DNA from: a virus | Length of the DNA stretch: 64,000 nucleotides | Virus record (IMG/VR): IMGVR_UViG_3300003690_000024 | Coordinates: 1-64,000 of that record | Strand: one strand, 5' to 3' | In this document: piece by piece, positions 1 through 44,292 of the stretch | How positions within the stretch are numbered: position 1 is the stretch's first letter | Layout: the number at the start of each line of letters is the position of its first letter | Made by a program: the position numbers and the translations under genes | Notes under the pieces: model-generated | Told to the model about the DNA's origin: nothing | Database searches by the model: none | The model's input: only the letters and a program-made list of their open reading frames with translations

Positions 1-62
1 TAGACCTGGACAAGCCAGAAACCCCAGAAGTGTTCCAGAGAGTGTTTGGGGGAGCAGAATGA
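1..62 (+). CDS. 3' end of an upstream gene (partial; ...DLDKPETPEVFQRVFGGAE*)
   Basis: Open frame from position 3 to TGA at 60-62, overlapping the next ATG as ATGA, like other gene junctions here. Confidence 0.6.
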   Translation, partial: DLDKPETPEVFQRVFGGAE

Positions 63-286
63 AACTCCTACTTGAAAACTGGCGAGAGTATATGAATGAA
101 GAAAGGATATCTGTAGAAGATATACACAATCGCGCAGATAAGTTAGGAATTCCTTGGGATGATAATACCGAGTTTATGAGTTGGACCAAAGATCTTACGG
201 GTAAATCTCATTTGGATAAAATGACCAATGAGGAGCTTTCTATTATTTATACAGCTTTAAAAAAGCGGGGTAAAGAAGGTAAATGA
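59..286 (+). CDS. Small hypothetical protein with MKLLLENW leader
   Basis: 75 aa ORF; N-terminus MKLLLENWREYMNEE shared with neighbouring genes; ATGA coupling at both ends. Confidence 0.8.
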   Translation: MKLLLENWREYMNEERISVEDIHNRADKLGIPWDDNTEFMSWTKDLTGKSHLDKMTNEELSIIYTALKKRGKEGK

Positions 287-1173
287 AACTCCTACTTGAA
301 AACTGGCGCAAATATGTCCTTAAAGAGGCATATATTTTGGACGATGACTTCTTCGAAGCTTCAATCGAGCAATTATTCGACAAATTGAAGGATTTTGGCG
401 ATAATACTTGGGTATTCTTCGATACGGAGACCACCGGGTTCAAACCAGAGAGCGCTCAGCTTACAGAAATTGCTGCAGTAGCTGCATACCCCAATAATTG
501 GCAATTTGAAGAGGTCGAGGCCGAAAAAGGCCTCTTTTACGACAAAATTAAGCTAAATCCGGAGACTTTAGCTGGTTTTGAGGCTTCTGATGACCCAAAA
601 GCCAAATATCCGCTTGAATTGACTCGATATGGGATGCCAAGCGACGAATATCGCGAAAAATACCCCAAAGGCATGCCTAATGAGGTCGATGTCATCAAAG
701 AGTTCCTTATATACGTCGAAAATCAGCCAAATCCGGTCCTGGTGGCCCAAAATGCCGAATTTGACATCAATTTCATCCAAACAAGGGCCGATTTTTACGA
801 TTTAAGCGTTAATTTAAGAAATTATCCCATCTTTGATACAATGATGTTGATAAAACTGTGGCATAACTCATTAATCAAGACATTAGCCGACGAAGGAGAC
901 GAAAGGGCACAAATTATATTGCAAGCACTCACTATGACGGGTAAATTTGGTGATTATGTGACTTCTTCGATGGGCCCAGTGTCAAAAGCCTATGAAATTA
1001 GCACAGATGAGTGGCATAATGCCTTAGCGGACGTTAAAATGATGATGGAGATGACAAAAGTGATATTTATGGCCCTTCAAGAGGCTTCTGATGTCGATAT
1101 TTCGAGATATCAAGGTAGAACGGCGTGGGGGCTTCGGAAAAAGAAGCACGGGTACCATAGGAGCGACAAATGA
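283..1173 (+). CDS. DEDDh 3'-5' exonuclease (DnaQ/RNase T-like) with MKLLLENW leader
   Basis: ExoI VFFDTETTG, ExoII AQNAEFD, ExoIII HNALADV. Confidence 0.85.
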   Translation: MKLLLENWRKYVLKEAYILDDDFFEASIEQLFDKLKDFGDNTWVFFDTETTGFKPESAQLTEIAAVAAYPNNWQFEEVEAEKGLFYDKIKLNPETLAGFEASDDPKAKYPLELTRYGMPSDEYREKYPKGMPNEVDVIKEFLIYVENQPNPVLVAQNAEFDINFIQTRADFYDLSVNLRNYPIFDTMMLIKLWHNSLIKTLADEGDERAQIILQALTMTGKFGDYVTSSMGPVSKAYEISTDEWHNALADVKMMMEMTKVIFMALQEASDVDISRYQGRTAWGLRKKKHGYHRSDK

Positions 1174-1201
1174 GAAGAAAACCCTTTGTTGCTACTTTTG
1201 A

Positions 1202-1209
1202 ACTATTTA
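1202..1209 (+). promoter_or_regulatory. Candidate phage late promoter ACTA(T/A)TTA (also at 2840, 4913, 8636, 38663, 44691)
   Basis: Same octamer recurs 3-23 nt upstream of start codons. Confidence 0.5.
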
Positions 1210-1228
1210 ATAAGGTAGGAGAGATATT

Positions 1229-2260
1229 ATGGACCTAATAATGGAAAATTGGAGGAAATTCGTACATGAACAAGAGGAGGAGGAGGCTAATCCCTTTGGC
1301 CCTCGACCCTCTGATGCTCCGACAAGATTCACAACGGCTGACTTATCCCCAGAGCAATTTGTACAAATGATTGATGCCTGGGGCGCGCCAGGCAGTGGTT
1401 CAAGACATACTGCAGAAGAGATTTATGCAAAGCTGGGCGGCAAAGAAGTGCTGGCAAAGAATTATGCAATCTTAAAAAAGAGAATGGAGGCAGAGGGCAA
1501 AGGCAAACTGCCGCGAAAATACATGCCTGTCGTTAAAAAGGGATTCGTAGAGGATTTGTTTAATCGATTGAAGAAGGGTAAGCTAGACTGGACTGAGCCT
1601 TTCGCTAAAGGCTCAAAGAAGGCTCGTGGCGACGGCGGTTACGAAGGCAAACATGGCGCCGGAAGAGGCGGGAGAATTAAAAGCAAAAAAACACGAAAAC
1701 TTGCGGCGCAATCTATAAAAGAATTTGATTATGGGAGGGGAGATTATAGTCCAGAGGAAAAAGAAAAATATGCACAATATATACCATCTAAGAACTTCCC
1801 CAGTTTGCAAGACTTTGAGACAATGCCCGATCCAGAGAAGTCTAAGAGTTACTGGTTGAACAAAGGAAAGCTAGACGGAGACAAAGGAGATGATATTATA
1901 GCACCAGAATTTACTACCATGCCTGTGGCTGACCTTCATCCCTCGCAAGACAGAGTTTATGCTGACAAGATTGGGTGGAAATTATTAGAGTATGGAGCCG
2001 GTGTTCTGGCACCCCTAAAAGACCCGGATCTTGTGGATCCAAATACAGGCGACGAATCCCCGGAGGCCGACTGGAGATATCGTTCTATTGCCATTGAAGG
2101 TGGCCTTCTTTTAGACGGTCACCACAAATGGGCTCTTGCCGCGTTGTCCGGTGCAGACGCAAAGGTACCGGTATTGTTTATACCAAATCTTGACTTAGCC
2201 ACAACAATTAACCTTCTACGCTCCTATGGTGCGGCGCAAGGCTTTGCAGGGCAGGCATAA
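1229..2260 (+). CDS. Protein with C-terminal ParB/sulfiredoxin-like domain and MDLIMENW leader
   Basis: LHPSQDRVY and LLLDGHHKWA motifs typical of the ParB-N/Srx fold; AGGAGA SD upstream. Confidence 0.65.
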   Translation: MDLIMENWRKFVHEQEEEEANPFGPRPSDAPTRFTTADLSPEQFVQMIDAWGAPGSGSRHTAEEIYAKLGGKEVLAKNYAILKKRMEAEGKGKLPRKYMPVVKKGFVEDLFNRLKKGKLDWTEPFAKGSKKARGDGGYEGKHGAGRGGRIKSKKTRKLAAQSIKEFDYGRGDYSPEEKEKYAQYIPSKNFPSLQDFETMPDPEKSKSYWLNKGKLDGDKGDDIIAPEFTTMPVADLHPSQDRVYADKIGWKLLEYGAGVLAPLKDPDLVDPNTGDESPEADWRYRSIAIEGGLLLDGHHKWALAALSGADAKVPVLFIPNLDLATTINLLRSYGAAQGFAGQA

Positions 2261-2262
2261 CA

Positions 2263-2331
2263 ATGAAAATCACCAAATCACAACTCAAACAGATTATTAA
2301 GGAAGAACCCGAAGCCGCCACAGGGCAGTAA
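2263..2331 (+). CDS. 22-aa leader-only peptide MKITKSQLKQIIKEEPEAATGQ
   Basis: Below the ORF-track cutoff; ATG 2263 to TAA 2331 fills the gap between two genes exactly; matches the second leader class. Confidence 0.6.
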   Translation: MKITKSQLKQIIKEEPEAATGQ

Positions 2332-2332
2332 G

Positions 2333-2848
2333 ATGAAACTCCTAATTGAAAACTGGCGAAAATACCTAAAAGAAGCCGATAATTTGGAGCAAAAGGTCTA
2401 TTCGTTCGACTTTGACAACACCCTCATCCGTTATCACACTTTAGAAGACGGAGATGTTGTATATCTTGGACCTCACGAAGAAAACATCCAATTAGTTAAA
2501 GATTTGGCGGCCGAAGGCAACAAAGTTGTTATTGTTACGTCACGCTGTAAATTAAAAGGCGAAAAAAAGCCATGGGACGATACACCAACCCCAGAAGAGG
2601 CTATAATCGAATTTGGATTGCCTATTGAAGAAGTCTATTATACCTTTGGCGATTTTAAGGCAGACAAGCTTGTAGAGTTGGGGGTTGCAAAACATTGGGA
2701 CGATGATGAAGAAGAGGTCGCAGCTGCAGAAGTAGCAGGCATCGAAGCAGTTTTGGTCCCTACAGAGTCGGGCATCACCGATAGATTACGAAATAAATGG
2801 TGTGATTATAACGAAGAAATGAAAAAGGACTGGGAAACAACTAATTAA
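2333..2848 (+). CDS. HAD-superfamily phosphatase with MKLLIENW leader
   Basis: Motif I FDFDNTL, motif II VIVTSR, K in FKADK, motif IV HWDDD. Confidence 0.8.
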   Translation: MKLLIENWRKYLKEADNLEQKVYSFDFDNTLIRYHTLEDGDVVYLGPHEENIQLVKDLAAEGNKVVIVTSRCKLKGEKKPWDDTPTPEEAIIEFGLPIEEVYYTFGDFKADKLVELGVAKHWDDDEEEVAAAEVAGIEAVLVPTESGITDRLRNKWCDYNEEMKKDWETTN

Positions 2849-2870
2849 TTATGCGCCGGAGCTTCGTGTT

Positions 2871-3332
2871 ATGAAAAAGTCAGAAATTTTAAGAATAATT
2901 AGAGAAGAGGTCGAGGTTATCTTGACAAATAATGAAGCAGTTGAAATATTTGATCTCGATCCGGTGTCATTATTAGATAAGATGATGAGTGAAACAGAAT
3001 CTGACTCTGGATCTGATTTTTTGAAGAGCAAGGGTCACGATCCCGAAACAGCCGCACCTTTTAAAGGAACCAAAACGAAGAGAGGAGCAGCAAAACGCCA
3101 ACGTCGCAAAGAAAAACCTGCCGGGGAAGAGATCGAAGATCTTGAAGAAACCGAAGACAAGTCTTTTTCCAAGGCCGGAGAAGAAATCAAAGAAAAGGGC
3201 ACCGAGGGTGTCTTTACGGCCAAGGCAAAGAAAGCCGGCATGGGAGTGCAGGCATGCAAAGCTAGTACCAAGACCAAGCGCCAAGCTGCGTTTGCCAAAG
3301 GCGCTGCAACTGTTGCGCGGGAAAATAAATAA
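2871..3332 (+). CDS. Charged hypothetical protein with MKKSEILRIIREE leader
   Basis: 153 aa, Lys/Glu-rich, second leader class. Confidence 0.7.
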   Translation: MKKSEILRIIREEVEVILTNNEAVEIFDLDPVSLLDKMMSETESDSGSDFLKSKGHDPETAAPFKGTKTKRGAAKRQRRKEKPAGEEIEDLEETEDKSFSKAGEEIKEKGTEGVFTAKAKKAGMGVQACKASTKTKRQAAFAKGAATVARENK

Positions 3333-4057
3333 TGAGCGTAGATTATAAACAATTAAAATCCCTTGTTAGAGAGGCCATGTTTACTGGCGGAGGCATTAAT
3401 GAGCCCTCAGCGCCCGAAGGAATACCTATACGTACGCCGGCGGCAGACATCAGTGGCAAAGAGCAGGATATGGGAGATCCCAAAGCAAACAAGCTTTACG
3501 AGGTGGCGCTAAAGGCTCGCGAGGCTACTGAGGAACTTATAGAAAAATTAGATCAGCCCATATACGATGAGCCATATGAGCATGCTTTTAAAGCGTCTGC
3601 ATCTCTTCGAAGAGTATTGAATAGCCTTATTGAGTCTGGCGCCCATCCGATGCCGTGGCAGCAGGTGGTGCCTCCGCCCAGTAAACAACAAAAATATGGC
3701 AATTATGTTCCCTATCAAGGTGCCCTAGCTTACGGTGCTGATGTTGGTATTCTGGGAAAGGGCCAGCTCGAAGAGGAAGGGCCCGCAGGACAAGAAGTGC
3801 CGGCGGCGGCTGGTAAAACTCAAGGAGGCCGTGCGAAGAAGATAGCCGCGGCCGCAGAAATGGGAGGAGCCCAAAGTCAAGAAGCGATTGAGCAGCAGTT
3901 AGCTGCAGTCTTGACCGGTAAGGGTGTTACTCCTATACGATTGCGCGATGCTTTAATCTCTTTGCTGACAGATTTAGGTTTATCCAATGCAAAGCCCGTG
4001 GCGGTTCTTATTGCCAAAGGGTTGGCCGCCAAACAAAAGGAACAACAAGGAAAATAG
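3332..4057 (+). CDS. Hypothetical protein (leader-like start YKQLKSLVREAM)
   Basis: 241 aa ORF, TAATG-coupled to the upstream gene. Confidence 0.7.
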   Translation: MSVDYKQLKSLVREAMFTGGGINEPSAPEGIPIRTPAADISGKEQDMGDPKANKLYEVALKAREATEELIEKLDQPIYDEPYEHAFKASASLRRVLNSLIESGAHPMPWQQVVPPPSKQQKYGNYVPYQGALAYGADVGILGKGQLEEEGPAGQEVPAAAGKTQGGRAKKIAAAAEMGGAQSQEAIEQQLAAVLTGKGVTPIRLRDALISLLTDLGLSNAKPVAVLIAKGLAAKQKEQQGK

Positions 4058-4059
4058 TC

Positions 4060-4395
4060 ATGAAATTAACAAGAAAATCTTTGCGGGCCCTAATCACCGA
4101 AGAACTTCTTCACCAAAATTCTGTACTTTTAGAAATGCCCGAACGAGAGGAACAACGCGGCACGCACGAAGAAAGAGGCCCCGTGCAGGTTGATCCTGAC
4201 GGCCATGAAGAAGAAATAGCAAAAAGATCTCTCTATCATATGTCTCAGCAATCTCAGCAACTCCATGATATGCTAACGGATGATGAAAGCTTAGAGCCGT
4301 GGGTACAAGATAAGATTACTAAAGCTGCGGATTATTTAGAACAGGCCTTTAAAGCTATCACTTATGATAAAGGGCCTGGGCAAGAGAGAAGTTAA
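4060..4395 (+). CDS. Hypothetical phage protein with MKLTRKSLRALITEE leader
   Basis: 111 aa; helical C-terminal segment LEPWVQDKITKAADYL. Confidence 0.7.
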   Translation: MKLTRKSLRALITEELLHQNSVLLEMPEREEQRGTHEERGPVQVDPDGHEEEIAKRSLYHMSQQSQQLHDMLTDDESLEPWVQDKITKAADYLEQAFKAITYDKGPGQERS

Positions 4396-4397
4396 TT

Positions 4398-4598
4398 ATG
4401 TGGGACTGGGCACACTTTAAAGAAGAAGGGTGGTGGACACATACAAAGCGCTCATGCAGCCTTGCATTTCTTTTGTTGTTGTCTGGAGGAGCTATGATTC
4501 TTCATATATTAGTACCATTTTGGCAACAACCGAAGGCCCTGCAAAGAGCAGAGGTGGCCTGTAAGCTATGCGAAGGGTTGAACGAGCCGCGAGAGTGA
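4398..4598 (+). CDS. Small membrane protein (DUF6356-like)
   Basis: HFKE..W..H followed by hydrophobic segment LLLLSGGAMILHILVPFW. Confidence 0.5.
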   Translation: MWDWAHFKEEGWWTHTKRSCSLAFLLLLSGGAMILHILVPFWQQPKALQRAEVACKLCEGLNEPRE

Positions 4599-4603
4599 TG
4601 TAG

Positions 4604-4921
4604 ATGAGGAAGATCGTCAGGCTAGCTTATGTACTGACGATCTTTATTCTTATAGATCTAACTGCTACAATTTATTGGATTGCTAATGACTTGGGCCATG
4701 AAGCTAATCCAATAATGAACTTTTTTTTAGAGTTTTCGCCGCTTCTTTTTGTAGTTGCTAAATTAGGTTTAAGCGGCGTAGGAATTTGGATTCTTTATTT
4801 TTTTAGAAATCGGTTTAAAGCCGCTATTTTCAAAATCCTTTTAGGTCTAAACCTAGTTTATATCTCTATATTTGTGTATCATTTATGGGGTTTGCTTTTT
4901 CTTCTTTTTTCAACTATTTAA
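4604..4921 (+). CDS. Three-helix membrane protein (DUF5658-like)
   Basis: D..AT.. and EANPIM motif, three hydrophobic helices. Confidence 0.65.
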   Translation: MRKIVRLAYVLTIFILIDLTATIYWIANDLGHEANPIMNFFLEFSPLLFVVAKLGLSGVGIWILYFFRNRFKAAIFKILLGLNLVYISIFVYHLWGLLFLLFSTI

Positions 4922-4927
4922 TAGATA

Positions 4928-6052
4928 ATGTATAAATGTATCAATAATACTATCGGGAATGTTTATCACCTTGAGCAAATAGTAGATAATTTCTTTCCCT
5001 ATTCTCAAAAAAAGCTAGGGTTCGACAAAGACGTTACCATTATTTTTCAAAGCGATGAAGAGAATGCTTCAAAAGTGCTTGGTAAAACAGCACACTATGA
5101 CCCCACCAATCACGAAGTGATGTTATATATAGATAATCGCCACCCCAAAGATATTCTACGGTCACTATCTCATGAATTAGTCCACCATGCGCAGAATTGT
5201 CGAGGCGATTTTACTGGGGACTCAGCTACTTATGATGGATATGCGCAAAAGAATCCCCATCTTCGAAAAATGGAAAGAGAAGCATATACGAAAGGTAATT
5301 TGATCTTTAGAGATTTTGAAGACCTAATTAAGACAGGAAAAATTAACATCGAGATTGATTTCTCGGACTCAGGAGAACCAGAGATGTCGTTAAAAGAGTG
5401 GAAGAATAATGAAATCAACAAGAAGTTGATGAAGAAGTGGGGACTTCTTAAGGAAGAAAGAGGCCCATCTTCAGACCAGCCCGGCAAAAGTCACCGGGGA
5501 GAATCCTGCGCTGAAGCACATCCCGAAGAGACTGCTGAAGCCGGCGGCGATATCGCCGAGGGCCACCGGGCATGGATGGATCGCGGCGGCAACGGCGAAG
5601 ATGAATTAGAAGAAAGCGGCCTGTATCGCGACGACGACGAGGGCGCGTGGGGTCCTACCCGTCGTCATGATGATCCTATTCCTGTAGTGGGCGACGACGA
5701 CCCCGATATTGGCGCGTGGTCGCGAGAAAAAGACCCGGCGGAGGATCCGGAGCATCTGGATCCGTCGGGGCGCATGCGCTTAGATTACGAGCGGGATCCG
5801 GTCCATTTTAAGGGATGGGGCGGCGCGAGTCGAGGTATGAAGGGCCCGGAAGTTCCCGGCTTCGATGAACCTGAGCCCAAGACCTGGGATCGGCGCCCCG
5901 ATCGCGCTGCTAGCGAAGAAGAGCACGGTGACTGGAAAGAACGAAAGCGTGCAGCTTTCGCCAAGCAGTTCAAAGAGGGCAAAATCTCTGTAAAAGAAGT
6001 AAAAGAAATTACTCGACGTATTATCGAGCGTATTAAAAAGGAAGGTAAATAA
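4928..6052 (+). CDS. Zn-metallopeptidase-like protein (HExxH) with long acidic, GC-rich C-terminal region
   Basis: ILRSLSHELVHHAQ and downstream EREAY (gluzincin-like third ligand). Confidence 0.7.
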   Translation: MYKCINNTIGNVYHLEQIVDNFFPYSQKKLGFDKDVTIIFQSDEENASKVLGKTAHYDPTNHEVMLYIDNRHPKDILRSLSHELVHHAQNCRGDFTGDSATYDGYAQKNPHLRKMEREAYTKGNLIFRDFEDLIKTGKINIEIDFSDSGEPEMSLKEWKNNEINKKLMKKWGLLKEERGPSSDQPGKSHRGESCAEAHPEETAEAGGDIAEGHRAWMDRGGNGEDELEESGLYRDDDEGAWGPTRRHDDPIPVVGDDDPDIGAWSREKDPAEDPEHLDPSGRMRLDYERDPVHFKGWGGASRGMKGPEVPGFDEPEPKTWDRRPDRAASEEEHGDWKERKRAAFAKQFKEGKISVKEVKEITRRIIERIKKEGK

Positions 6053-6053
6053 A

Positions 6054-6260
6054 ATGGTTGCACCATGGATTAAAAAGAAGAGAGCAGCTGCGGCTGTAGT
6101 AACAGATGCGCCGGCTGTGGTCGAGGCTCCAAAGACTTCCCCGTCGGGACCAGTCGTCGCGACGGTTGTTGAAGAGGTTGCCCCTGTGGCCGAAGCATTA
6201 AAGGCCAAGAAGCTCCGTGCTCGACGCAGCACAAAGACTACAGCTACTTCTGGAGATTAG
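6054..6260 (+). CDS. Small Ala/Val/Lys-rich hypothetical protein
   Basis: 68 aa ORF in operon register. Confidence 0.55.
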   Translation: MVAPWIKKKRAAAAVVTDAPAVVEAPKTSPSGPVVATVVEEVAPVAEALKAKKLRARRSTKTTATSGD

Positions 6261-6263
6261 AGG

Positions 6264-6509
6264 GTGGACTTTCGCCGCATGACTCGCGAGTTCTTGCTAG
6301 GCGAGAGCCAAGCTCCCAGTTTGGCCAGCTATATTCAATCAATCTCGGAAGTTTTAAGCTCAGTCACCCCTAGGTCTCGCACTGATGAGCGCCGTATTGA
6401 GATGGCAAAGAATAGTTTAAAAGAAGTACGTCGGCATGCGCGTCGACTCCAAGAAAGAGTTAATCTTCTAGAAGAGCAAGTTAAAATTTTAGAAGAAAGT
6501 AAGGGGTAA
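6264..6509 (+). CDS. Small coiled-coil hypothetical protein
   Basis: GTG start after GAGG; heptad-like C-terminus LQERVNLLEEQVKILEE. Confidence 0.65.
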   Translation: MDFRRMTREFLLGESQAPSLASYIQSISEVLSSVTPRSRTDERRIEMAKNSLKEVRRHARRLQERVNLLEEQVKILEESKG

Positions 6510-6513
6510 ACTA

Positions 6514-8664
6514 ATGGGCGGCGTCTTTGGACACATGTCTCACATTTATGATAATCCAAGTATGACCTTTGGTCAAATTAAGGATATTATGACGAAGGCT
6601 GCTGACGGTAAACTGGAGAACGTTACAGAAAAAACAGATGGTCAGAATCTGTTTGTTTCTTATAATGTAGGCGATGGAACTCAAAGGTGGGTAGAAGAAG
6701 CACAAGTTCGTGCTGCTCGGAACAAAGGCGATATCAAGAACGGCGGAATGACGCCGGAACAATTGGCCACAAAGTATGCCGGGCGAGGAGCGCTAGAGGA
6801 AGCTTTTGTTAATGCTTTCCGCGCTTTTGCTCGAACTATGGATAAGCTTTCTGATGAACAGAAGCTAACCCTTTTCGGACCCGACACAAACATATACTAT
6901 AATGCCGAAGTGATGGACCCAGCAAATCCTAATGTCATTAACTATGATACAAAAACATTTTTGATTCATCGCGCGGGACATGCAGAATACGATAAAGAAA
7001 CAGGAAAACCTATCAAGGGAGAAAAAGGTTTTTCGGAACGACAAGCCCAAAGGCTCCAGGATATTCTTGAACAATCGCAAGAAGAATTAGCTGACGATCA
7101 GTTTAGGGTTCAAGTTAATGCTATTCGTAAGGACTTGGAGCCCCTATCTGATGGGATAATTTTAGAAACAGCGATCGCTGGTATTGATAGGGCTATGAGC
7201 GCATCTGGGATGAATGACGACGATACCATTGCAGACTATATTTTTGCTCAATGGAAAGAGTTGGTTGGAGCCACACTACCCGAACTAACAGGCAAACAAG
7301 AAAAGCTCATCATCGATCGTGTTATGACTGATTACTATGGCGCCCTAGAAGGAGAAGGACCTCTAAAATCTAAAGGGCTTGAAACTCGACAAATTAAAAA
7401 AGCTATTGGCCGGCCAGACTTGGATGAAGCAATTATTTCTTTAATCAAAGACTATCCTAGACACTTTAAAGAATTTATTTTCCCCATTGAAAGCGTTATC
7501 CATCGATTTGCCGTTGAGATTCTCCGTGCTGTAAAAAGTGCATATATTATAGCTGCTGGAGGTAATGAAGCGGAGGTAGCAAGACTTCAAGCCCTGGTAG
7601 GCAACGCCATCGATACAATTCAAGCGTCCGGTAACGAAGAAGCTATGGAAATTATTAAAGATCAAGTAGAAAAACTTAGTAGAATTGAGGACGATGGTTC
7701 TATCGGGGACGTTGATCTAAGTATGATTTCGTCTGCGGCAGAAGGTATCGTTTTTGATTACGATGGACATACCTATAAATTTACCGGTGGTTTTGCGCCG
7801 GCCAACCAAATCCTAGGTTTATTCAAGTATGGGCGCAAGGGCATTCCAGCTTTTGCGGCTGAACTTGATGAGGGACTCATTCTTGAACAGAATAATAAAC
7901 AATTAATTGCCATATTTCCCGGGCGGTTCCAACCTATGGGGCCGCATCATGCCGAAACTTATAAAAAGTTGGCTCACAAATTTGGTCCGGACAACACTTT
8001 TATCGCTACTTCCAATATTGTGAAGCTTCCAAAATCCCCCTTAGATTTTGAACAAAAAAAGCGTATAATGATTAAACACGGAATTCCCGAAAGTCAAATT
8101 GTGCAAACTAAGAATCCTTATCAAGCAACCGAAATTACTAGTCGTTTTGACCCCGCGGGAGCAGCTGTTATCTTTGCTGTGGGCAAAAAAGATATGGATG
8201 AGGATCCTCGATTTGCAAATCTTGGGGGCCTTACAAAAAAAGGGGAGCCGGCATATTATAAAAAGTTTGATCCTAGCTTAGAGTTAGATAGTTTAGATAC
8301 GCATGGGTATATTACTGTTGCTCCTCACGTTTCTCGTAAAGTATCTAGCGGAAGAGAAATGAGCGGCACCACCTTGCGAGAATTTCTAAAAACAGCCGAT
8401 CGTCAAGAATTCGAAGAAGTGATGGGGTTTTTTGATGAAGAGATTTTCGAAATGCTCCAAGGGGCTCTACAAGAAATGAGTTCAATGGCTGGAGGGAACG
8501 TCCAAGGGGGATACTCAAAGAGTCCGTGGAAAGGCTTTGATGCAGTCTCTTTTAACAAAAAACAGAAAAATAATGCAAAGCTCCGCGGAGCGAAAGAATT
8601 CCTAGGAGAAGAAGAGCTGGTTAATGAAGTAGTTGACTATTTACTAGGTATAACGGTGGGCTAA
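6514..8664 (+). CDS. Fusion of ligase-like nucleotidyltransferase and HIGH-superfamily (NMNAT/cytidylyltransferase-like) domains
   Basis: N-terminal TEKTDGQN (KxDG), YNAEVM, EGIVF, YKFTG; C-terminal FPGRFQPMGPHH and MSGTTLR. Confidence 0.7.
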   Translation: MGGVFGHMSHIYDNPSMTFGQIKDIMTKAADGKLENVTEKTDGQNLFVSYNVGDGTQRWVEEAQVRAARNKGDIKNGGMTPEQLATKYAGRGALEEAFVNAFRAFARTMDKLSDEQKLTLFGPDTNIYYNAEVMDPANPNVINYDTKTFLIHRAGHAEYDKETGKPIKGEKGFSERQAQRLQDILEQSQEELADDQFRVQVNAIRKDLEPLSDGIILETAIAGIDRAMSASGMNDDDTIADYIFAQWKELVGATLPELTGKQEKLIIDRVMTDYYGALEGEGPLKSKGLETRQIKKAIGRPDLDEAIISLIKDYPRHFKEFIFPIESVIHRFAVEILRAVKSAYIIAAGGNEAEVARLQALVGNAIDTIQASGNEEAMEIIKDQVEKLSRIEDDGSIGDVDLSMISSAAEGIVFDYDGHTYKFTGGFAPANQILGLFKYGRKGIPAFAAELDEGLILEQNNKQLIAIFPGRFQPMGPHHAETYKKLAHKFGPDNTFIATSNIVKLPKSPLDFEQKKRIMIKHGIPESQIVQTKNPYQATEITSRFDPAGAAVIFAVGKKDMDEDPRFANLGGLTKKGEPAYYKKFDPSLELDSLDTHGYITVAPHVSRKVSSGREMSGTTLREFLKTADRQEFEEVMGFFDEEIFEMLQGALQEMSSMAGGNVQGGYSKSPWKGFDAVSFNKKQKNNAKLRGAKEFLGEEELVNEVVDYLLGITVG

Positions 8665-8666
8665 AT

Positions 8667-9530
8667 ATGATCGATCGACACGAATTTGCGCAAGAAATGA
8701 TGCTTCGCGAACAGGTGCGCAAGGCCATTAATATTGTTAAAACTAAACGACAAGGACGGCGTCTTAAGTCGTTACAAGAAGAGACAATCCTTCGAGTATT
8801 TGTGCGTACTCTTCTAGGGGAAGGCCAAAGTGGAGTTGCAGATGCGGCTAGACATGATAGTACCGGGATTAATGCGCTTGAAGATCTCTTAAAAAACTCT
8901 AATATTCTCTCTGTTTTAGAAAAGGGGTATAAGTCTCTCACAACAGACGATAAACAAAGAGCTTCGTATCGTAACCACATCTTGGTGGCTGTAGAAAAAT
9001 CATTAGCTCCAGAAGATTCTCGTAAGAATGCTGGTGAGGATGTTGAGTTGGGTTCTCTAGAAGAGGATATTAATATTGATATCGATCGTCCACAAGATGA
9101 TCCAGATTTTATCGACGTTGAAGAAAAAGAAGAGGTGGTTGAAGAACCAGATGAAAGAGACTCTTTTGGCATAAATGGCGAAGATAAAACAGGAAGAAAC
9201 ATGGCATATACTGATTTCCAGTCGATTGAAAAGGTCATTTTGAGCGCTTTTGATGATTTGGATAATGCCGAAGATTCAACCATGTTTGAAGAATACCTTA
9301 TTAAGAATTTAGCTCTGTATTTTGACAAATTTGAAGCAGAATTAGATCCTACCGCAACAGAGCCAGAAGAGGCCGTCGACGCAGAGGTAGATGCAGACGT
9401 CGAAGGGGAAGAGGCGGGATTAGAAGGGACCGATGATTTAGGCTTAGAAGCTGAAGAAGTCGCAAACATCGAACTCCAAGAAATCGCTAAATTCCTCGAT
9501 ATTGATGATATTATTAAAAATATACTATAA
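8667..9530 (+). CDS. Highly acidic hypothetical protein (possible prohead core/scaffold-like)
   Basis: 287 aa, very Asp/Glu-rich, leader-like helices MLREQVRKAI and ILRVFVRTLLGE. Confidence 0.7.
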   Translation: MIDRHEFAQEMMLREQVRKAINIVKTKRQGRRLKSLQEETILRVFVRTLLGEGQSGVADAARHDSTGINALEDLLKNSNILSVLEKGYKSLTTDDKQRASYRNHILVAVEKSLAPEDSRKNAGEDVELGSLEEDINIDIDRPQDDPDFIDVEEKEEVVEEPDERDSFGINGEDKTGRNMAYTDFQSIEKVILSAFDDLDNAEDSTMFEEYLIKNLALYFDKFEAELDPTATEPEEAVDAEVDADVEGEEAGLEGTDDLGLEAEEVANIELQEIAKFLDIDDIIKNIL

Positions 9531-10059: not shown

Positions 10060-10575
10060 ATGTCAAAATTATTAATAGTATTATTACTACTATATTCTTG
10101 TAACAATCAACTGACAGAAGAGGATGTACGTCAAGAGGAATACGGCGAATTATATGCCACCATGAATTGCTGGTGGAGTAGTCAGCCCAATCTATCACCA
10201 GCCCTCTTTTGGTGTACCGAAACTCTTGATACCGAACTAATTTCCGGATATGTTAGCTTAGCTATTCTAGAAGACCTAGATGGGGAAGAAATGTTTTCCA
10301 TTTGTGGTAAAAATGTAACGCTTAATTCAGGAGTTAGCATATACGACAATATTATCGCATTAATGACTGAAGATACTTATGACTGCCTTCAATCTTATGA
10401 AAGAAATCTTGGAAACGAGTTTGACTGGATCTGGGATAACCCAACGAACACGCTGCAGCTTATATGGCGCCCTACAAACGACGTCGACAAGGTTCTTACG
10501 TTATTTATACCCGAAAAGGTAGATTCTCCACGTGTTTTGGGCTCTGTTTATTACAAAACTGGATATTTTGACTAA
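10060..10575 (+). CDS. Putative lipoprotein
   Basis: Start at ATG 10060 gives MSKLLIVLLLLYSC (signal peptide with lipobox-like Cys). Confidence 0.6.
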   Translation: MSKLLIVLLLLYSCNNQLTEEDVRQEEYGELYATMNCWWSSQPNLSPALFWCTETLDTELISGYVSLAILEDLDGEEMFSICGKNVTLNSGVSIYDNIIALMTEDTYDCLQSYERNLGNEFDWIWDNPTNTLQLIWRPTNDVDKVLTLFIPEKVDSPRVLGSVYYKTGYFD

Positions 10576-10582
10576 ATATTAT

Positions 10583-11167
10583 ATGAGCAATATTACAAAG
10601 ATAGTACTATCCTTCATAGGATATGTATTTTTATTTAGTTGGACGCTCTGCGTTCTAGTACAGCCAGCAGCTGCCGGCGATTATGTGGGCAACTTTGAGC
10701 GCATACCATTGGTAGAAAATCGTCCACCTCAGGTTGGCACGTGGAAATCAACTCCAACAATTATTGTATGCGAATATGCTCCGATTAGTCAAGTTCAGAT
10801 TAACAGCGCCGCTAGCTATTGGAAAAGACTAGGTTATAAGTTTTATAATATCCAATATAAATATGATCCCTTAAATAAATGTCTTAGCGAGAACCCAAAA
10901 GGTTATATTGTTATACATTTGATTACAGCCGGCGTTAGATTGGACGATAGTTCGCTGGCTCAGACTCATTTTTATGTTGATAATGAAACAAGCAACATTG
11001 AATGGGCTATAATTTATATGCGCGCAGATATTCGTCCAACTATTTTGGAACACGAGCTTGGTCATGCACTAGGTTTTTTACACTTTAATCAAATTAATCA
11101 TTTAATGAATGAAAAGTGGACGATGAGCGGTTGGGACAACGACGGCTTAGAAAACAGGTATCGGTAG
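10583..11167 (+). CDS. Secreted or membrane-anchored matrixin-like (metzincin) metalloprotease
   Basis: HELGHALGFLH (HExxHxxGxxH) plus Met-turn HLM; N-terminal hydrophobic signal; start reassigned to ATG 10583. Confidence 0.8.
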   Translation: MSNITKIVLSFIGYVFLFSWTLCVLVQPAAAGDYVGNFERIPLVENRPPQVGTWKSTPTIIVCEYAPISQVQINSAASYWKRLGYKFYNIQYKYDPLNKCLSENPKGYIVIHLITAGVRLDDSSLAQTHFYVDNETSNIEWAIIYMRADIRPTILEHELGHALGFLHFNQINHLMNEKWTMSGWDNDGLENRYR

Positions 11168-38673: not shown

Positions 38674-41600
38674 ATGCCAGCACTTCGAACCCCACGTAAA
38701 TATAAAGGCAAGTCAACGGGAATTCCTTTTTCGGCGGTTGAAAAGGGTTCTACGCGCTATAAGCTTAAGCTTAAAATAGATCAGGCCGTTGCGAATTTTG
38801 ATCAGCCTGCGGCAATAGAAGAGGCTGTCGATCGATATATCATTCATTATTTTCCTGAATTTTATATTGCGCTTTATGATCAACCTGCGTTTATGGCGGC
38901 CAATGAGGATCCAAACGACGCCCAGGCCGCTTTTGTCGTTCTGTGGATGTACGAGACATTGAGGGTCCAGCTTGGGAATAAAATAGAAATAGACGCGCAA
39001 TATCCCACCTCTCCTCCCTCCGATAACGAAATAATGATTTTTAGCTTAAGATACGATGTTTTTAAAGCACGGGAGCAACTAACCAATCAAATGTTTCAGG
39101 GTGAGACAGACCAAAAACAAATGCCTTCCTTTGAGGCGAGTCTGAATTACTTTAATAGTGAAAATGGATTCGGCCCCACTGAAAGTCAGACAGAATTTCC
39201 TATCAAAAAGATGCCAGCAATTTCTCAGAGTTTACAGGGTGCTTTCACAAAATTCAGTAAACAGCAGAAACGATCAAGAGGCCCGAAGGCGCCTATATCA
39301 GTCGACTTTAATTCTGTGGGGACCTCAGTTGGTAAAATAATGGCTACCCTCGTTGGTGAGCTCATGGAGACAGTTAAAGGCGCCGGCAGAACTTATAAAT
39401 TTAGAGAAGGGGATACCTTAACACTTTATTTTGGGGCCTCTACTTCGTCACCGTCGACTGAAAAGGCTGTTGTGGTTCCTGATTCTGTGATCACGGATAT
39501 AAAATATTTAGCTACCGATAAATCAATTGCCGCAGAACAGTTAAAAGTGGGACACTTTTCTCTCGTAAAGTATAGTCCACTTATAAAGGATAAGGTTGTG
39601 TTAGGCGCCTTAAAAAACTACAGTTTAGTCCTGAAGATGGATAAGGAAGCCTCCAAAAGGGGCCCCAATTCGTTTTCGGTTGATGAATTTTTTGGGGAAG
39701 CACTTGGTGTCGACACCGCTGACGGCTTTCCTTTAGAGTGGGACACATCCAATGATTCTGATGTGGAACAGGACGATGAAAATAATGCTTTAATAAATAC
39801 GGCAGTTGACCTAGGAATCATTGATATTGCCGACACCGCCGGTCTTCAAGTGAGCATCGCCGCGTATACCACAGAACAGCTTACCACTCTCAACGCAGCA
39901 GTAACCCAAAATCCCGAGCTTTATACCGAGGTGTTTGCGGGACAAGAAAAGAAAAAAGATGAAGCTTCCCCCGACTTTTTAAACCAGATTGAAAAAGTAT
40001 TAGCGGACGGCCCGATGGGTGCTGTTGCCGACAATAGCCCAGTGGGGGCATTTTTCCGCCACTTTGGTATCGATACACTCGTAAAAGAGGCGCTTTTGTG
40101 CCTTACTTTTGGGATAAATTTTGAAATCGATCGCATTACTGCCCTTATCGGCGAAATTAAGGGCCTAGCTTTCAGTGGCAACATAGTAGTAGAGTTTGGG
40201 GGTTCAGTTAAGGGAGTTACAAAGCCTCAAATATCGCTCCCTTCTCTCGGTGATCTCTCGTTAAGTTTCCCAATGTTTACCATTACAGGCGATATCTGGA
40301 AGATGATTCTAGAGATTATTATTGAAAGTCTTGAAAAAGCCTTAATTCAAGTGATTGCTCAGCTTGTAGAGCTTCTTCGCGAACTGTGTGACTTTAATAA
40401 TCCAAGGTCCCGAGATTATGGCGACACAAATATGCGCGATCTGATGCCCCTCACAGCGCCAGGCACAAAACGGGGCGCTAGGGGACAAGAGGACGACTCT
40501 AATCCTGATATGGGCGCGCAACACGACCCGTTTGATCCCTTTAGGGGCTCCAATGTAGAGGAAGCCTCGGGGATGACACCAGATGAGATCCTCGACTATC
40601 TTGAAGATCTTTCATCTATTTTAAGTTCTATGGAGATATGTGTATTGCTCACTAATCCAGCATCGGCCGAAGAAGATCTCCTTCAAAAAATATTAGATTA
40701 TAATTTAGCGTACGGGGCCAATGCACAAGTTGCACAACAGATGACCACCTTTACAGAAATCATAGGATTTTTTGCTGAGTTGGCCAAAGTGGTGGATGTA
40801 ACAGACTTGTGTAACGAGATCGCAAACGAGGTTGCAGTTCTTAATCAAGACAATCTCTGCCTTACCGAAGATGACATCCAATCTGTTAATATGGATGATG
40901 TGGATAATATTGAGACTCTTTTGGATATTTTGAAAAACGGCTTGCGACCAGGCGTTGCGGGAGTTCCGGAGGTCTTCAGGCCTAATTTCGAATGTCCAGA
41001 TAAACCCAACTATGTAGAAGACCCCACCTTTAGAAAATCAATCTACGAGACACTCAATGTTCTGATAGAAACGGTTGAGCTTCAGTTTAGCTATTCGACA
41101 GAATCTATTAAGAATGTACTGTTGGACTCCCGACTGACTGCAGCCGGCGGAGCGGCGTTTGATGCGATCGGCGCAGCTGAAGTTCCGCCTCTCTCTGAAG
41201 AGTGGGCTCCGGCGCCTAATAAGGCGATGATTGATATATTGAAGGCTATGATACAGGGCTTCGAAAACGTTGAGCAATATTCGGACGACATTGAAGACTG
41301 CATCAACGATAATCAAGATGTTTTTGGTTTAGACGTAAATCTCGACTTCGACGACATCACCAGGATCCTGAATGTCGTAAAAGAAGGAATGGAACTCGGC
41401 TTCGCTACTGGTGGACAACTAGGAGGCCTTGTCGACACGCTTGGAGACTTGTCAAACGCCTCGGAGCAAGGTACCCCTCTCATATCACGAAAAGTTTTCA
41501 ATAAACGCTTTTTGAGAGAATTTGAAGATTATATTCTCATTAGCCAGCCCTCGACCGGTTCCACGGGTGCGCCAACATGGAACCAAAACATTCTCAACTC

Positions 41601-44292
41601 GATGAACCCTGCTTCGTTCATGAACAACACCAACAGACTCTTCAACGTCCCGAGCCAAGGTACCACCGGTGCCGGCGGCGCCTACAATTTTAGGGGATCC
41701 GACCCGGCCTCGATGACGAACCTGCTCGGCTACGGCCGCGAGATTCTTACGTGGTACTTTCGGCCGCTTATGACAAAGTCGGGGGGCACCCAATTCACGA
41801 CGGCCGCCGCCGAGACCGCGGCCCAGGCCGCGGCCCTCAAGAAATTCGCTTCATGGGGGACCGGGACGATCAAGCTGTGGTACCCCCCTTACCAGGACAC
41901 GACCCTCGATGGTCTGTCGAGTTTCGCCCTGCATGCAATAGGCGTTTCAACTACGTCCGAAGCGGGTGCAGACTTTGCGGGTGACATACTGCCGGATACT
42001 GAGATAGCCAACCTTACTATGGATCCGTTTATTGAGAGTGTTAAGAGTACTCTTCGAACTGATAGATATCCCCCGGGTAATTCCATCTTCTATCAACCCG
42101 CGGCGGAGAAGTATGCACAACGCCGCGCCTTCCCGATGGCCAATGCGCTCTTGACCGATTATTTGTTTGATTATTATATTAAGAACGGGGTATTTGATGC
42201 AGCAACCCTTCAGTCACTTAGCTTTTTCCATAATAACGAAAATTGCCAGCCAGGAGATACATCTGATCTTTTAGATGTCGGCGACATCCTTAACAAGATG
42301 CTTCGGATGTTTGAAAAGCTCGCATGCGGTAGCGACCTTCCGGCGCGTAAAAAAGTACGGCTAGCTCTAAAATATGGAATGTATCTTCTGTTTGTGCAAA
42401 TCCATATTGCAGAATTTATTATTAAAAACATATTTGTGTTCGCAGCCACAGAAATAGATGAACTATTTGCTAAGCCATTTATAACCATGTATATGCGCGC
42501 GCAGATCGAGAATTCAATGGCAAACTATCTTGCTGATATTGATGAATCGGTACGAGATATGTTTGTAAACGATCTCACCGAGTTATTCCAACAAGTTAAT
42601 CAGGTTGAGGGTGGTATTACAGATTACGAAGGGAACGTAGTTTTTAATTCTGGGGAAAAGTTACCCCCAGATGAGGCTACCTATAATAAGATTATTAACT
42701 ATTTGATTGGTGAAAGGATTATGGATTCAAAATCTGCAGTGAACAATGCCATTAAGCAGGCCCACCCAAATGCAAATCCAAAGCCGCTAGATGAAATTTT
42801 CTTACATTCCATTCCTGCCTACCAGACCGCCGCGGAGTGGGCCAACGGCGGCCCGTTTCACTTGGACCCGCATTTCCAGGATGAGTTCGGCCAGGACGAT
42901 GGCTTTTTCCTTCCCCGGCCGGCCGGCAACACCCGCCGTGTCACCATCCAACGAGATTTTGGGCTCGACCACGACCGGCCACGCCTATTTATATTAAAGT
43001 CTTATTATCCACGAGTCGATCTTCTGCGTCAGTCTCGTACCCTGGGCCCCGACAGCTTTGTATCCGCGACCCTGATCCCACGGGGCATCTTCAGCGTCGA
43101 CGAGATGGTCGAGCTCGGCCCGCCCACGGCCTTGCCCTTCGACAACAACCTCCGTCTCATGCTCCTCCAAATGGACACCGACATCGAGAACGGGCTCGGA
43201 ATAGAATATATCATACGATATAAATTTTTCCTTTCTTTTCCGGACCCAGACATGTCCGCCCCCGCCGAGCGGGCCCTCGTCACCGAGCATCGACTTTATC
43301 CCCTTCTGCCGGCCGGTGATTCTGGAACTTCAGGCGCCGAGCTGGGGAGTCGTCCGGTATGGGTCGAGAGCGACCATACTTTTGATAGAACCGTCTGGTT
43401 GCCGTCTTCCGGACCAGGTGGCCGAAGAGAGTTCGAGCAAGCGCGCCCCGGGCAGGGCGAGGATTTCAAACCCATCACCCTTACGCAAGACGACGTTGAC
43501 TTCTTGATGGGAATCCCGGAGTATCAAGACTATTTTACAAACGTGTTTGACAAAGGAGTGTTAAGTATGATTCCTATCATACAAAACTTCTACTTAACAA
43601 CCAAATATTTCGATGAAATTACCGGCGCGATGAAGCCTCCGAAAGATGCATGCCTTAATATTGTAAAAAATACTATCGCAAGTGACGACAAATATGACAA
43701 GACCCCAGATATGAGTCGCGACAACGTTGCCAGCTTTACTAATACCTTTAGTGGCGATGACGCTTTTGAGTCTTTTATGCGTGATTTTATTTTGATAATG
43801 CTCATCAAGACGCCTATTGATATTCTTAAGGGGATCCTTGAATTGATTGATCCTCACGTTGCTATCAGCAAGATGATCAAAACTATCACCGGACAAGTGT
43901 TTAACATCTTGAGTCGCGTGTTTGACGAAATCCTTGACTCGGCCCCGGAAGAACTCACCACGGTGATCGATAGTGGCGAAAAACTATTGGCTATTGTCTT
44001 GTGTCTCGTGGATGTGGTAATGAAGAATCCTCCTGGCACCCCTCCCGGCCCCGCGCAGGACATGTTGTTGAAACAAAACATGGAGGCCTTCTTCCCGCGC
44101 ATCACGGCCGAAGGTATTGATTTCTTGGGGTCAATAATGGGAATGTTTATGATACCTCCTTCACCTCTAGGTATCCTTTATTTGCTTCTCTCACTAATTA
44201 ATGTGGAAGTTCCCGAGTTCGGGGTGGACACCGGAGATAATGCAGTAGTGAATTCATCGGATCCATCCGCGCCAACCGCTCCCGATTGTTAG
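38674..44292 (+). CDS. Very large virion-associated protein (1872 aa)
   Basis: Uninterrupted ORF between spike and gp25 genes; function not recognised. Confidence 0.7.
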   Translation: MPALRTPRKYKGKSTGIPFSAVEKGSTRYKLKLKIDQAVANFDQPAAIEEAVDRYIIHYFPEFYIALYDQPAFMAANEDPNDAQAAFVVLWMYETLRVQLGNKIEIDAQYPTSPPSDNEIMIFSLRYDVFKAREQLTNQMFQGETDQKQMPSFEASLNYFNSENGFGPTESQTEFPIKKMPAISQSLQGAFTKFSKQQKRSRGPKAPISVDFNSVGTSVGKIMATLVGELMETVKGAGRTYKFREGDTLTLYFGASTSSPSTEKAVVVPDSVITDIKYLATDKSIAAEQLKVGHFSLVKYSPLIKDKVVLGALKNYSLVLKMDKEASKRGPNSFSVDEFFGEALGVDTADGFPLEWDTSNDSDVEQDDENNALINTAVDLGIIDIADTAGLQVSIAAYTTEQLTTLNAAVTQNPELYTEVFAGQEKKKDEASPDFLNQIEKVLADGPMGAVADNSPVGAFFRHFGIDTLVKEALLCLTFGINFEIDRITALIGEIKGLAFSGNIVVEFGGSVKGVTKPQISLPSLGDLSLSFPMFTITGDIWKMILEIIIESLEKALIQVIAQLVELLRELCDFNNPRSRDYGDTNMRDLMPLTAPGTKRGARGQEDDSNPDMGAQHDPFDPFRGSNVEEASGMTPDEILDYLEDLSSILSSMEICVLLTNPASAEEDLLQKILDYNLAYGANAQVAQQMTTFTEIIGFFAELAKVVDVTDLCNEIANEVAVLNQDNLCLTEDDIQSVNMDDVDNIETLLDILKNGLRPGVAGVPEVFRPNFECPDKPNYVEDPTFRKSIYETLNVLIETVELQFSYSTESIKNVLLDSRLTAAGGAAFDAIGAAEVPPLSEEWAPAPNKAMIDILKAMIQGFENVEQYSDDIEDCINDNQDVFGLDVNLDFDDITRILNVVKEGMELGFATGGQLGGLVDTLGDLSNASEQGTPLISRKVFNKRFLREFEDYILISQPSTGSTGAPTWNQNILNSMNPASFMNNTNRLFNVPSQGTTGAGGAYNFRGSDPASMTNLLGYGREILTWYFRPLMTKSGGTQFTTAAAETAAQAAALKKFASWGTGTIKLWYPPYQDTTLDGLSSFALHAIGVSTTSEAGADFAGDILPDTEIANLTMDPFIESVKSTLRTDRYPPGNSIFYQPAAEKYAQRRAFPMANALLTDYLFDYYIKNGVFDAATLQSLSFFHNNENCQPGDTSDLLDVGDILNKMLRMFEKLACGSDLPARKKVRLALKYGMYLLFVQIHIAEFIIKNIFVFAATEIDELFAKPFITMYMRAQIENSMANYLADIDESVRDMFVNDLTELFQQVNQVEGGITDYEGNVVFNSGEKLPPDEATYNKIINYLIGERIMDSKSAVNNAIKQAHPNANPKPLDEIFLHSIPAYQTAAEWANGGPFHLDPHFQDEFGQDDGFFLPRPAGNTRRVTIQRDFGLDHDRPRLFILKSYYPRVDLLRQSRTLGPDSFVSATLIPRGIFSVDEMVELGPPTALPFDNNLRLMLLQMDTDIENGLGIEYIIRYKFFLSFPDPDMSAPAERALVTEHRLYPLLPAGDSGTSGAELGSRPVWVESDHTFDRTVWLPSSGPGGRREFEQARPGQGEDFKPITLTQDDVDFLMGIPEYQDYFTNVFDKGVLSMIPIIQNFYLTTKYFDEITGAMKPPKDACLNIVKNTIASDDKYDKTPDMSRDNVASFTNTFSGDDAFESFMRDFILIMLIKTPIDILKGILELIDPHVAISKMIKTITGQVFNILSRVFDEILDSAPEELTTVIDSGEKLLAIVLCLVDVVMKNPPGTPPGPAQDMLLKQNMEAFFPRITAEGIDFLGSIMGMFMIPPSPLGILYLLLSLINVEVPEFGVDTGDNAVVNSSDPSAPTAPDC

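Follow-up and report, generated by a model that had tools for sequence, protein, structure and literature searches.

Two exchangeable N-terminal peptides on unrelated phage proteins are candidate capsid-targeting tags of T4-like phages

Introduction

Bacteriophage T4 carries a capsid-targeting sequence (CTS) on its internal proteins IPI, IPII and IPIII (PMC3012670, PMC9026906). It is a short N-terminal peptide on otherwise unrelated proteins. The prohead protease gp21 cleaves after L/I-X-E, and such a cut removes the CTS (PMC9026906). We confirmed the T4 leader MKTYQEFIAE/A (the slash marks the cut) on IPII and IPIII in the record NC_000866. Here we describe two short N-terminal peptides, the class-1 and class-2 tags, that open unrelated proteins in a 64,000-nucleotide stretch of viral DNA (the window). 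The window is the start of a 95.4-kb IMG/VR contig, IMGVR_UViG_3300003690_000024 (G000). This contig is ~58% complete, and its genes lie all on one strand.

The tags resemble the T4 CTS in several respects. They are short, N-terminal, shared by unrelated proteins and end in L/I-x-E. The phage encodes homologues of gp20, gp21 and gp23, and the cargo genes (those behind the tags) are hypervariable among relatives. In contrast, the tags have 14-16 residues instead of 10 and show no sequence similarity to the CTS. There are two of them, interchangeable, on 2-20 or more genes per genome, compared with three tagged genes in T4. The cargo reaches ~700 amino acids (aa), some cargo genes lie inside the head module, and packaging and cleavage are predicted from sequence.

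Other described systems share some of these features. In the giant phages phiKZ, 201phi2-1 and SPN3US, head and ejection propeptides are cut by gp21-like proteases at S/A-x-E (PMC9026906, PMC5694885). Likewise, many internal head proteins are processed there after Glu by a T4-type protease, and propeptides can have redundant sites. However, no shared portable leader is described in these phages, and the motif before Glu is different. Encapsulin cargo-loading peptides also send unrelated enzymes inside an HK97-fold shell by means of a short peptide. They are usually C-terminal and kept on, and they serve cellular compartments instead of virions. Finally, MuF-fused phage-head toxins, LXG and Rhs proteins combine a conserved N-terminus with swappable C-terminal modules, in arrays with orphan stubs. 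Their delivery modules are whole domains and not 14-residue peptides, and the cargo described here is mostly not toxin-like.

The two tags and the genes that carry them

The class-1 tag reads M-K-L-L-L-E-N-W-R-K-Y-L-x-E, with the general form M-[KDR]-L-[LI]-[LIM]-E-N-W-R-x-[YF]. The class-2 tag reads M-K-I-[TS]-K-x-x-[LI]-x-x-I-I-[KR]-E-E. Both start at Met1, measure 14-16 residues and form short amphipathic helices with many K/R, L/I and W/Y residues.

The first-pass annotation of the window placed class-1 leaders at 59, 283, 1229 and 2333. All four are borne out. They lie on the + strand, and the DNA pattern ATG-NNN-YTN-NTN-NTN-GAR-AAY-TGG-MG matches at these four positions, against 0 matches in 100 shuffles. 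A fifth copy starts at genome position 83644, outside the window. Class-2 tags of G000 open the stub at 2263 and the genes at 71407, 71803, 72123 and 72346. With iterated hidden Markov models (HMMs), the next-best class-2 N-termini of G000 after these strong copies are those of genes 2871 (14.1 bits) and 4060 (12.7 bits). These two scores are marginal (E 0.04-0.1 over 23,712 N-termini). The class-2 HMM finds no tag at 3332 (2.9 bits), 6264 (-2 bits) or 8667 (1.1 bits). The class-2 leader that had been proposed at 2263 is thus a firm one, those at 2871 and 4060 are borderline, and the one at 3332 is dropped together with the related helices suggested at 6264 and 8667. The array itself had been drawn from 59 to 9530. 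Tagged genes occupy its start:

59..286, + strand: gene of 75 aa with the class-1 tag MKLLLENWREYMNE at 59-100 (class-1 HMM, 27 bits); the body has a weak PHROG match only.
283..1173, + strand: gene of 296 aa with the class-1 tag MKLLLENWRKYVLKE at 283-327, followed by a DEDDh 3'-5' exonuclease (PF00929, E 8.7e-9; phrog_192, E 2e-16).
1229..2260, + strand: gene of 343 aa with the class-1 tag MDLIMENWRKFVHE, a conserved body and a possible ParB-like C-terminal domain.
2263..2331, + strand: open reading frame (ORF) of 22 aa, the class-2 tag MKITKSQLKQIIKEE plus seven residues (class-2 HMM, 43 bits).
2333..2848, + strand: gene of 171 aa with the class-1 tag MKLLIENWRKYLKE and a HAD/polynucleotide kinase (PNK)-phosphatase-like body with a DxDxT motif (phrog_1238 and phrog_415, E 1e-8 to 3e-9).
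2871..3332, + strand: charged protein of 153 aa with the weak class-2-type start MKKSEILRIIREE.
3332..4057, + strand: array gene of 241 aa with no supported tag and no family match.
4060..4395, + strand: protein of 111 aa with the divergent class-2-type start MKLTRKSLRALITEE; its body has homologues in 7 loci.

The genes between 4398 and 9530 carry no tag. They are untagged conserved neighbours, not cargo, and several of them recur beside such arrays.

The bodies behind the leaders had been described as a DEDDh exonuclease, a ParB/Srx-like domain, a HAD phosphatase and small charged proteins. The exonuclease (by Pfam), the phosphatase (by PHROG) and the small charged proteins stand. The exonuclease has a tagged orthologue in locus L028 (72% identical), and tagged homologues of the HAD protein occur in L099, L152, L046 and L087. 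The ParB/Srx-like identity of the 1229-2260 protein is only a lead. The Atlas lists ParB_N and ParBc_2 look-alikes at 0.91-0.92. A profile search of this protein gave no match in Pfam or PDB, and its AlphaFold 2 model (13 sequences) has a predicted local distance difference test score of 40, which makes it unusable.

The 2263-2331 ORF ends one base ahead of the ATG of the next (class-1) gene. Similar stubs are present in L247 (30 aa) and L017 (33 aa). This ORF is probably the remnant of a lost cargo gene, scar-like in appearance, as if cargo had been deleted or swapped.

Selection on the tag peptide and exchange between the tags

The conserved tag residues are encoded by all their synonymous codons. 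Between genomes the codons vary while the amino acids are fixed, and the DNA upstream of the tags is not conserved beyond a generic ribosome-binding signal. These patterns indicate that selection acts on the peptide. The same observations rule out a regulatory cassette at the DNA level. Within G000, the first 26 nucleotides are identical or nearly so in three tags. The starts of T4 ipII and ipIII are alike in the same way, a further similarity to the CTS.

The 1229-2260 protein has 12 orthologues (body identity 46-94%). Their tag is either class-1, a class-1 variant with W changed to F, or class-2. Mixed class-1 and class-2 tags are found in five more body clusters. Since orthologous cargo can carry either tag, the two tags are exchangeable modules with the same job. 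This exchange is the key new result. Because of it, we regard class 1 and class 2 as functionally equivalent. More generally, both peptides behave as modular tags, under protein-level selection, on unrelated bodies.

The boundary of the tag is also conserved. Among class-1 tags, 85% have L, I or V at position 12 and 78% have E at position 14; the information content then drops to background. An [LI]-x-E motif ending at residues 13-16 is present in 81% of 144 class-1 proteins from other contigs, against 4.3% in protein bodies. The class-1 search pattern left positions 12-14 free. The first-pass observation that the leaders end in hydrophobic-x-E is therefore upheld. In class 2, I-K-E at residues 12-14 was fixed by the search pattern, yet it is seen in HMM-recruited variants too. 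Likewise, degenerate tag variants retain the protease motif. A second L-x-E, close to residue 22, is found in about 40% of class-2 tags and is comparable to the redundant sites of the giant phages. Ahead of the boundary, the class-1 tag has four near-invariant polar residues, E6, N7, W8 and R9.

Distribution of the tags and their cargo

We scanned IMG/VR with degenerate DNA patterns. At least 120 contigs matched per class, with up to 6 copies per locus. HMMs of both leaders, applied to 2 Mb of IMG/VR loci, recovered 257 distinct class-1 and 324 distinct class-2 proteins (581), which fall into 388 body clusters. Hundreds of unrelated IMG/VR proteins begin with one or the other tag. Class-1 cargo is typically ~210 aa long and includes the families HAD_SAK_1 (the most frequent Pfam family of this cargo), GNAT, NUDIX, NT5C, M23, zeta-type kinase and RNase_T. 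Class-2 cargo is typically ~105 aa, and most of it belongs to no known family. A near-complete genome has 0-10 class-1 and 1-20 class-2 genes, all on the coding strand; reversed-pattern controls in these genomes gave zero matches.

The tags are virus-specific. A scan of bacterial and archaeal genomes (596 Gb) returned 35 stretches, against ~17 expected by chance, and about nine of them look real. The latter are mostly on short contigs of metagenome-assembled genomes (MAGs); two are on long contigs, L291 (2.8 Mb) and L301 (116 kb). L301 has a genuine class-1 tagged gene in a MAG labelled Candidatus Pelagibacter sp. TMED166 (SAR11). Either phage DNA was binned wrongly here, or the contig hints at the host.

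Among GenBank phages, tblastn with a 21-aa tag and with a tagged HAD protein gave zero matches. The tag motifs were not found in the literature searched, and the pelagimyophage paper does not mention them. Flavobacterium phage immuto (L252) has shared starts of its own. MKKS[EQ]L..II.E opens three genes, immuto35A_175, _176 and _190 (locus positions 7358, 7944 and 18252), and a third leader, M-x-N-(x)-F-[DN]-L-[KR]-[KS]-F-L-[VT]-E-N-K-L, opens another three (8870, 22695 and 23696). No cultured phage carries the exact tags, and immuto (vB_FspM_immuto), which is cultured on Flavobacterium sp. LMO8, is a possible laboratory system for the tag hypothesis. A literature search for a virion proteome of immuto or of Microcystis phage Mel-JY01 found none.

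The phage and its head module

Judged by its genes, G000 is a distant T4-like myovirus, uncultured and marine. Its closest cultured relatives by portal identity are Mel-JY01 (43%) and immuto (38%). The genes that place it are the following:

T4-type portal protein, gp20 (PF07230, E 2e-77).
Genome 85623-86222: gp21-type S77 prohead protease (PF03420, E 5e-35).
A gp6-like baseplate wedge protein and PhoH, also encoded by G000.

All nine tagged records with a completeness of 90% or more are T4-like phages of 175-290 kb, and each of them has the S77 protease. A gp23-type capsid protein is found in all four near-complete tagged genomes tested. We surveyed the head module in 21 large genomes, picked irrespective of tag position. 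Its fixed backbone consists of the portal, p281, p168, a small membrane protein, the protease, p151 and a gene similar to ribosomal protein S21, with three insertion slots around the protease gene.

The variable ORFs in or beside these slots, which lie between p281 and p151, often score as tagged (14 of 39, against a 4% background). The G000 gene at 83644 is one such slot gene. Of 35 genes that begin with MKLIMENWR, 15 directly adjoin p168, the gene of the small membrane protein or that of the protease, and 43% of class-2 genes have a terminase, portal or protease gene within 6 kb. Sequence resemblances are seen in the module as well. In 9 of the 21 genomes, the class-2 HMM gives 8-13 bits for the N-terminus of p151, a conserved protein whose gene directly follows that of the protease. 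In G000, the head-module p151 (genome 87007) and window gene 2871 have the MKKSE start in common. Gene 2871 also contains a basic stretch of 54 aa (window 2988-3149) that is 81% identical to genome 85185-85346, in a 335-aa protein just upstream of the protease. Away from N-termini, the top class-2 match in G000 falls at the C-terminus of the product of the gene that directly follows the protease gene. Gene position and sequence together tie the tags to the head-assembly module.

In 18 relatives the capsid protein has a propeptide ending ...L-L-E-N-Q-A-[KA]-[EQ]-L-L-[RK]-E/A, with an L-x-E that we take, by homology to T4 gp23, to lie at the gp23 maturation site. The last 15 residues of this propeptide (relatives L253-L272) visibly resemble the class-1 tag. 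M-A-R-L-L-E-N-Q-A-K-E-L-L-R-E/A and M-K-L-L-L-E-N-W-R-K-Y-V-L-K-E/A share M, LLEN, K and L-x-E/A. If this likeness were real, the class-1 tag would mimic the capsid propeptide. We rejected this candidate: an HMM of the segment finds only one class-1 tag, at E 7.9, which is not significant. A complex prediction of the scaffold protein with the first 40 residues of class-1 proteins scored 0.00, evidence neither way.

Some other features of these regions were recorded. The S21-like gene lies directly after p151 (genome 87470-87697, outside the window) and occupies the same spot in relatives (L308-L322) and in Mel-JY01, where it is annotated as RpsU. Repeat-rich proteins of 953 and 967 aa, with internal repeats of 100-178 nucleotides, are encoded at genome 88177-94005. 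In the baseplate/tail region, two giant ORFs of 1872 and 3132 aa occupy window 38674-44292 and 48041-57439.

Conserved untagged neighbours of the array

Two untagged genes beyond the array have relatives in other phages:

4928..6052, + strand: conserved protein with an HExxH (zincin-like) N-terminal domain, which marks the edge of class-1 arrays (weak matches to DUF6647 and Peptidase_M91, below the Pfam cut-offs).
6514..8664, + strand: conserved protein of 716 aa with a cytidylyltransferase-like C-terminal domain (phrog_395, E 3e-6).

Homologues of the HExxH gene are present in 25 class-1 loci and in 7 of 9 complete tagged genomes. All six complete genomes with class-1 tags have it; so do G025 and phage immuto, which have no class-1 tags. 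It is not present in G021 or G023, which have 8 and 20 class-2 tags. The HExxH domain is joined in immuto to a nucleotidyltransferase-type protein that is similar to the 6514-8664 protein, and it is part of 839-2287-aa proteins in G013 and G006. The 6514-8664 protein has homologues in 7 loci, and in Mel-JY01 a homologue is encoded beside the terminase gene. Near the N-terminus of the window protein is a K-T-D-G motif, perhaps motif I of a ligase or nucleotidyltransferase. Further on, window 10532-11167 encodes a 211-aa protein that combines a signal-peptide-like start with the metzincin motif HELGHALGFLH; its homologue lies directly ahead of the class-1 array in L070, L002, L036 and L026.

Discussion

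The two peptides are, somewhat more probably than not, T4-like capsid-targeting sequences put to use on a wider scale. As a short N-terminal amphipathic helix, the tag would give its protein affinity for the prohead core, and the protein would be built into the head. The gp21-type protease would then cut off the tag after the Glu of [LI]-x-E (residue 14). The trimmed protein would remain beside the DNA and exit with it at infection. Cargo genes are freely exchanged behind the tags, and the two tags replace each other. From the first-pass proposal of two address tags on swappable cargo, what stands is their modularity, the gp21 motif at their end, their restriction to T4-like phages with a gp21-type protease and their link to the head module. 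Core binding, cleavage, packaging, ejection and a counter-defence role of the cargo are steps that we infer. The tags and the T4 CTS are not similar in sequence, which makes the case one of analogy, and we therefore file the tags as CTS-like and not as members of that family.

A wider proposal is that an abundant, uncultured marine T4-like clade loads 2-20 or more hypervariable proteins per genome with the two tags, and that these are injected as an immediate counter-defence or takeover kit. We put this forward tentatively, as a possibility that falls short of being probable. An injected counter-defence role would be plausible for the RNA-end-repair and nucleotide-hydrolase cargo and for the peptidoglycan-cutting M23 cargo.

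Several results weigh against capsid targeting. Scored with the two tag HMMs, the N-termini of T4 IPII and IPIII (NC_000866) reach -1.3 and -3.4 bits, that is, no similarity. Much of the identifiable cargo belongs to nucleotide or RNA-end metabolism (5'-nucleotidase, HAD/PNK phosphatase, NUDIX, exonuclease) and could work equally well in the cytoplasm. As a whole, class-1 genes show no enrichment close to head genes, with 11% of them within 6 kb; the 'IM' subclass alone does show it. The class-2 residue after the putative cut is always Glu, compared with Ala at the capsid site here and at the T4 IPII and IPIII sites. The T4-type late promoter TATAAATA is present at 4 places on the coding strand, where 4.3 would be expected, and gives no late signal for the arrays; a count so close to expectation says nothing on timing. 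Finally, two dissimilar, interchangeable amphipathic helices also fit less specific roles.

The alternatives to capsid targeting each explain less, chiefly because they leave aside the [LI]-x-E boundary or the clustering at the protease gene. The tags might be uncleaved docking peptides for a hub other than the capsid (for example, an assembly for nucleic-acid repair, nucleotides or replication) or serve mutual association. The recognisable cargo, mostly nucleic-acid and nucleotide enzymes, would suit such a hub, as would the conserved HExxH/nucleotidyltransferase module that adjoins class-1 arrays. The near-invariant E6, N7, W8 and R9 suit a specific protein partner of any kind. However, docking gives no reason for conservation to stop precisely at [LI]-x-E, for tagged variable genes to lie beside the protease gene or for the conserved p151 to have a tag-like start. 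Moreover, none of the main enzymes of nucleotide synthesis carries a tag in G000 or G004, and M23 peptidase and GNAT cargo are ill-suited to a nucleotide complex. We judge docking rather unlikely. It is very unlikely that the tags are generic membrane-binding helices that anchor proteins to the inner membrane, for instance where the DNA enters or where proheads are initiated. The composition of both tags agrees with this idea, and two dissimilar helices would be expected to exchange if their physical properties alone mattered. Nevertheless, membrane helices usually keep their character only, whereas here the sequence, polar residues included, is kept across phages with portals 36-75% identical. 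The terminal [LI]-x-E and the protease-gene link would also be left without a reason.

Two further explanations were weighed. The shared starts could lack a common protein function and act as recombination sites at gene heads for cassette exchange, or as expression aids. The (near-)identical first 26 nucleotides of three G000 tags, as in T4 ipII/ipIII, and tag-only stubs such as 2263-2331, which resemble recombination scars, speak in its favour. Codons that vary between genomes under fixed amino acids, with upstream DNA unconserved, do not. Recombination may use the tags but leaves the tags themselves unexplained, and we hold this account to be highly unlikely. The last candidate appears extremely improbable: a propeptide whose removal by a different peptidase, for instance the HExxH protein next door, would set the timing or activation of enzymes in the cytoplasm. 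The HExxH gene does border class-1 arrays in those 25 loci and accompanies class-1 tags in every complete genome that has them. On the other side, G021 and G023 have class-2 tags without it, while G025 and immuto have it without class-1 tags. In several genomes it is one domain of much larger proteins, and its peptidase matches stay below the Pfam cut-offs. This distribution among genomes makes a dedicated tag peptidase unlikely.

If capsid targeting is the right explanation, sequence alone would suffice to list which proteins hundreds of uncultured ocean phages package and inject. The resulting large catalogue would contain candidate effectors for the first minutes of infection, mostly from unknown families. 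The tags would also be ready handles to package foreign proteins in non-model phages. The capsid-targeting principle of T4, known from three small proteins, would then be a general and scalable means of delivery with exchangeable tags.

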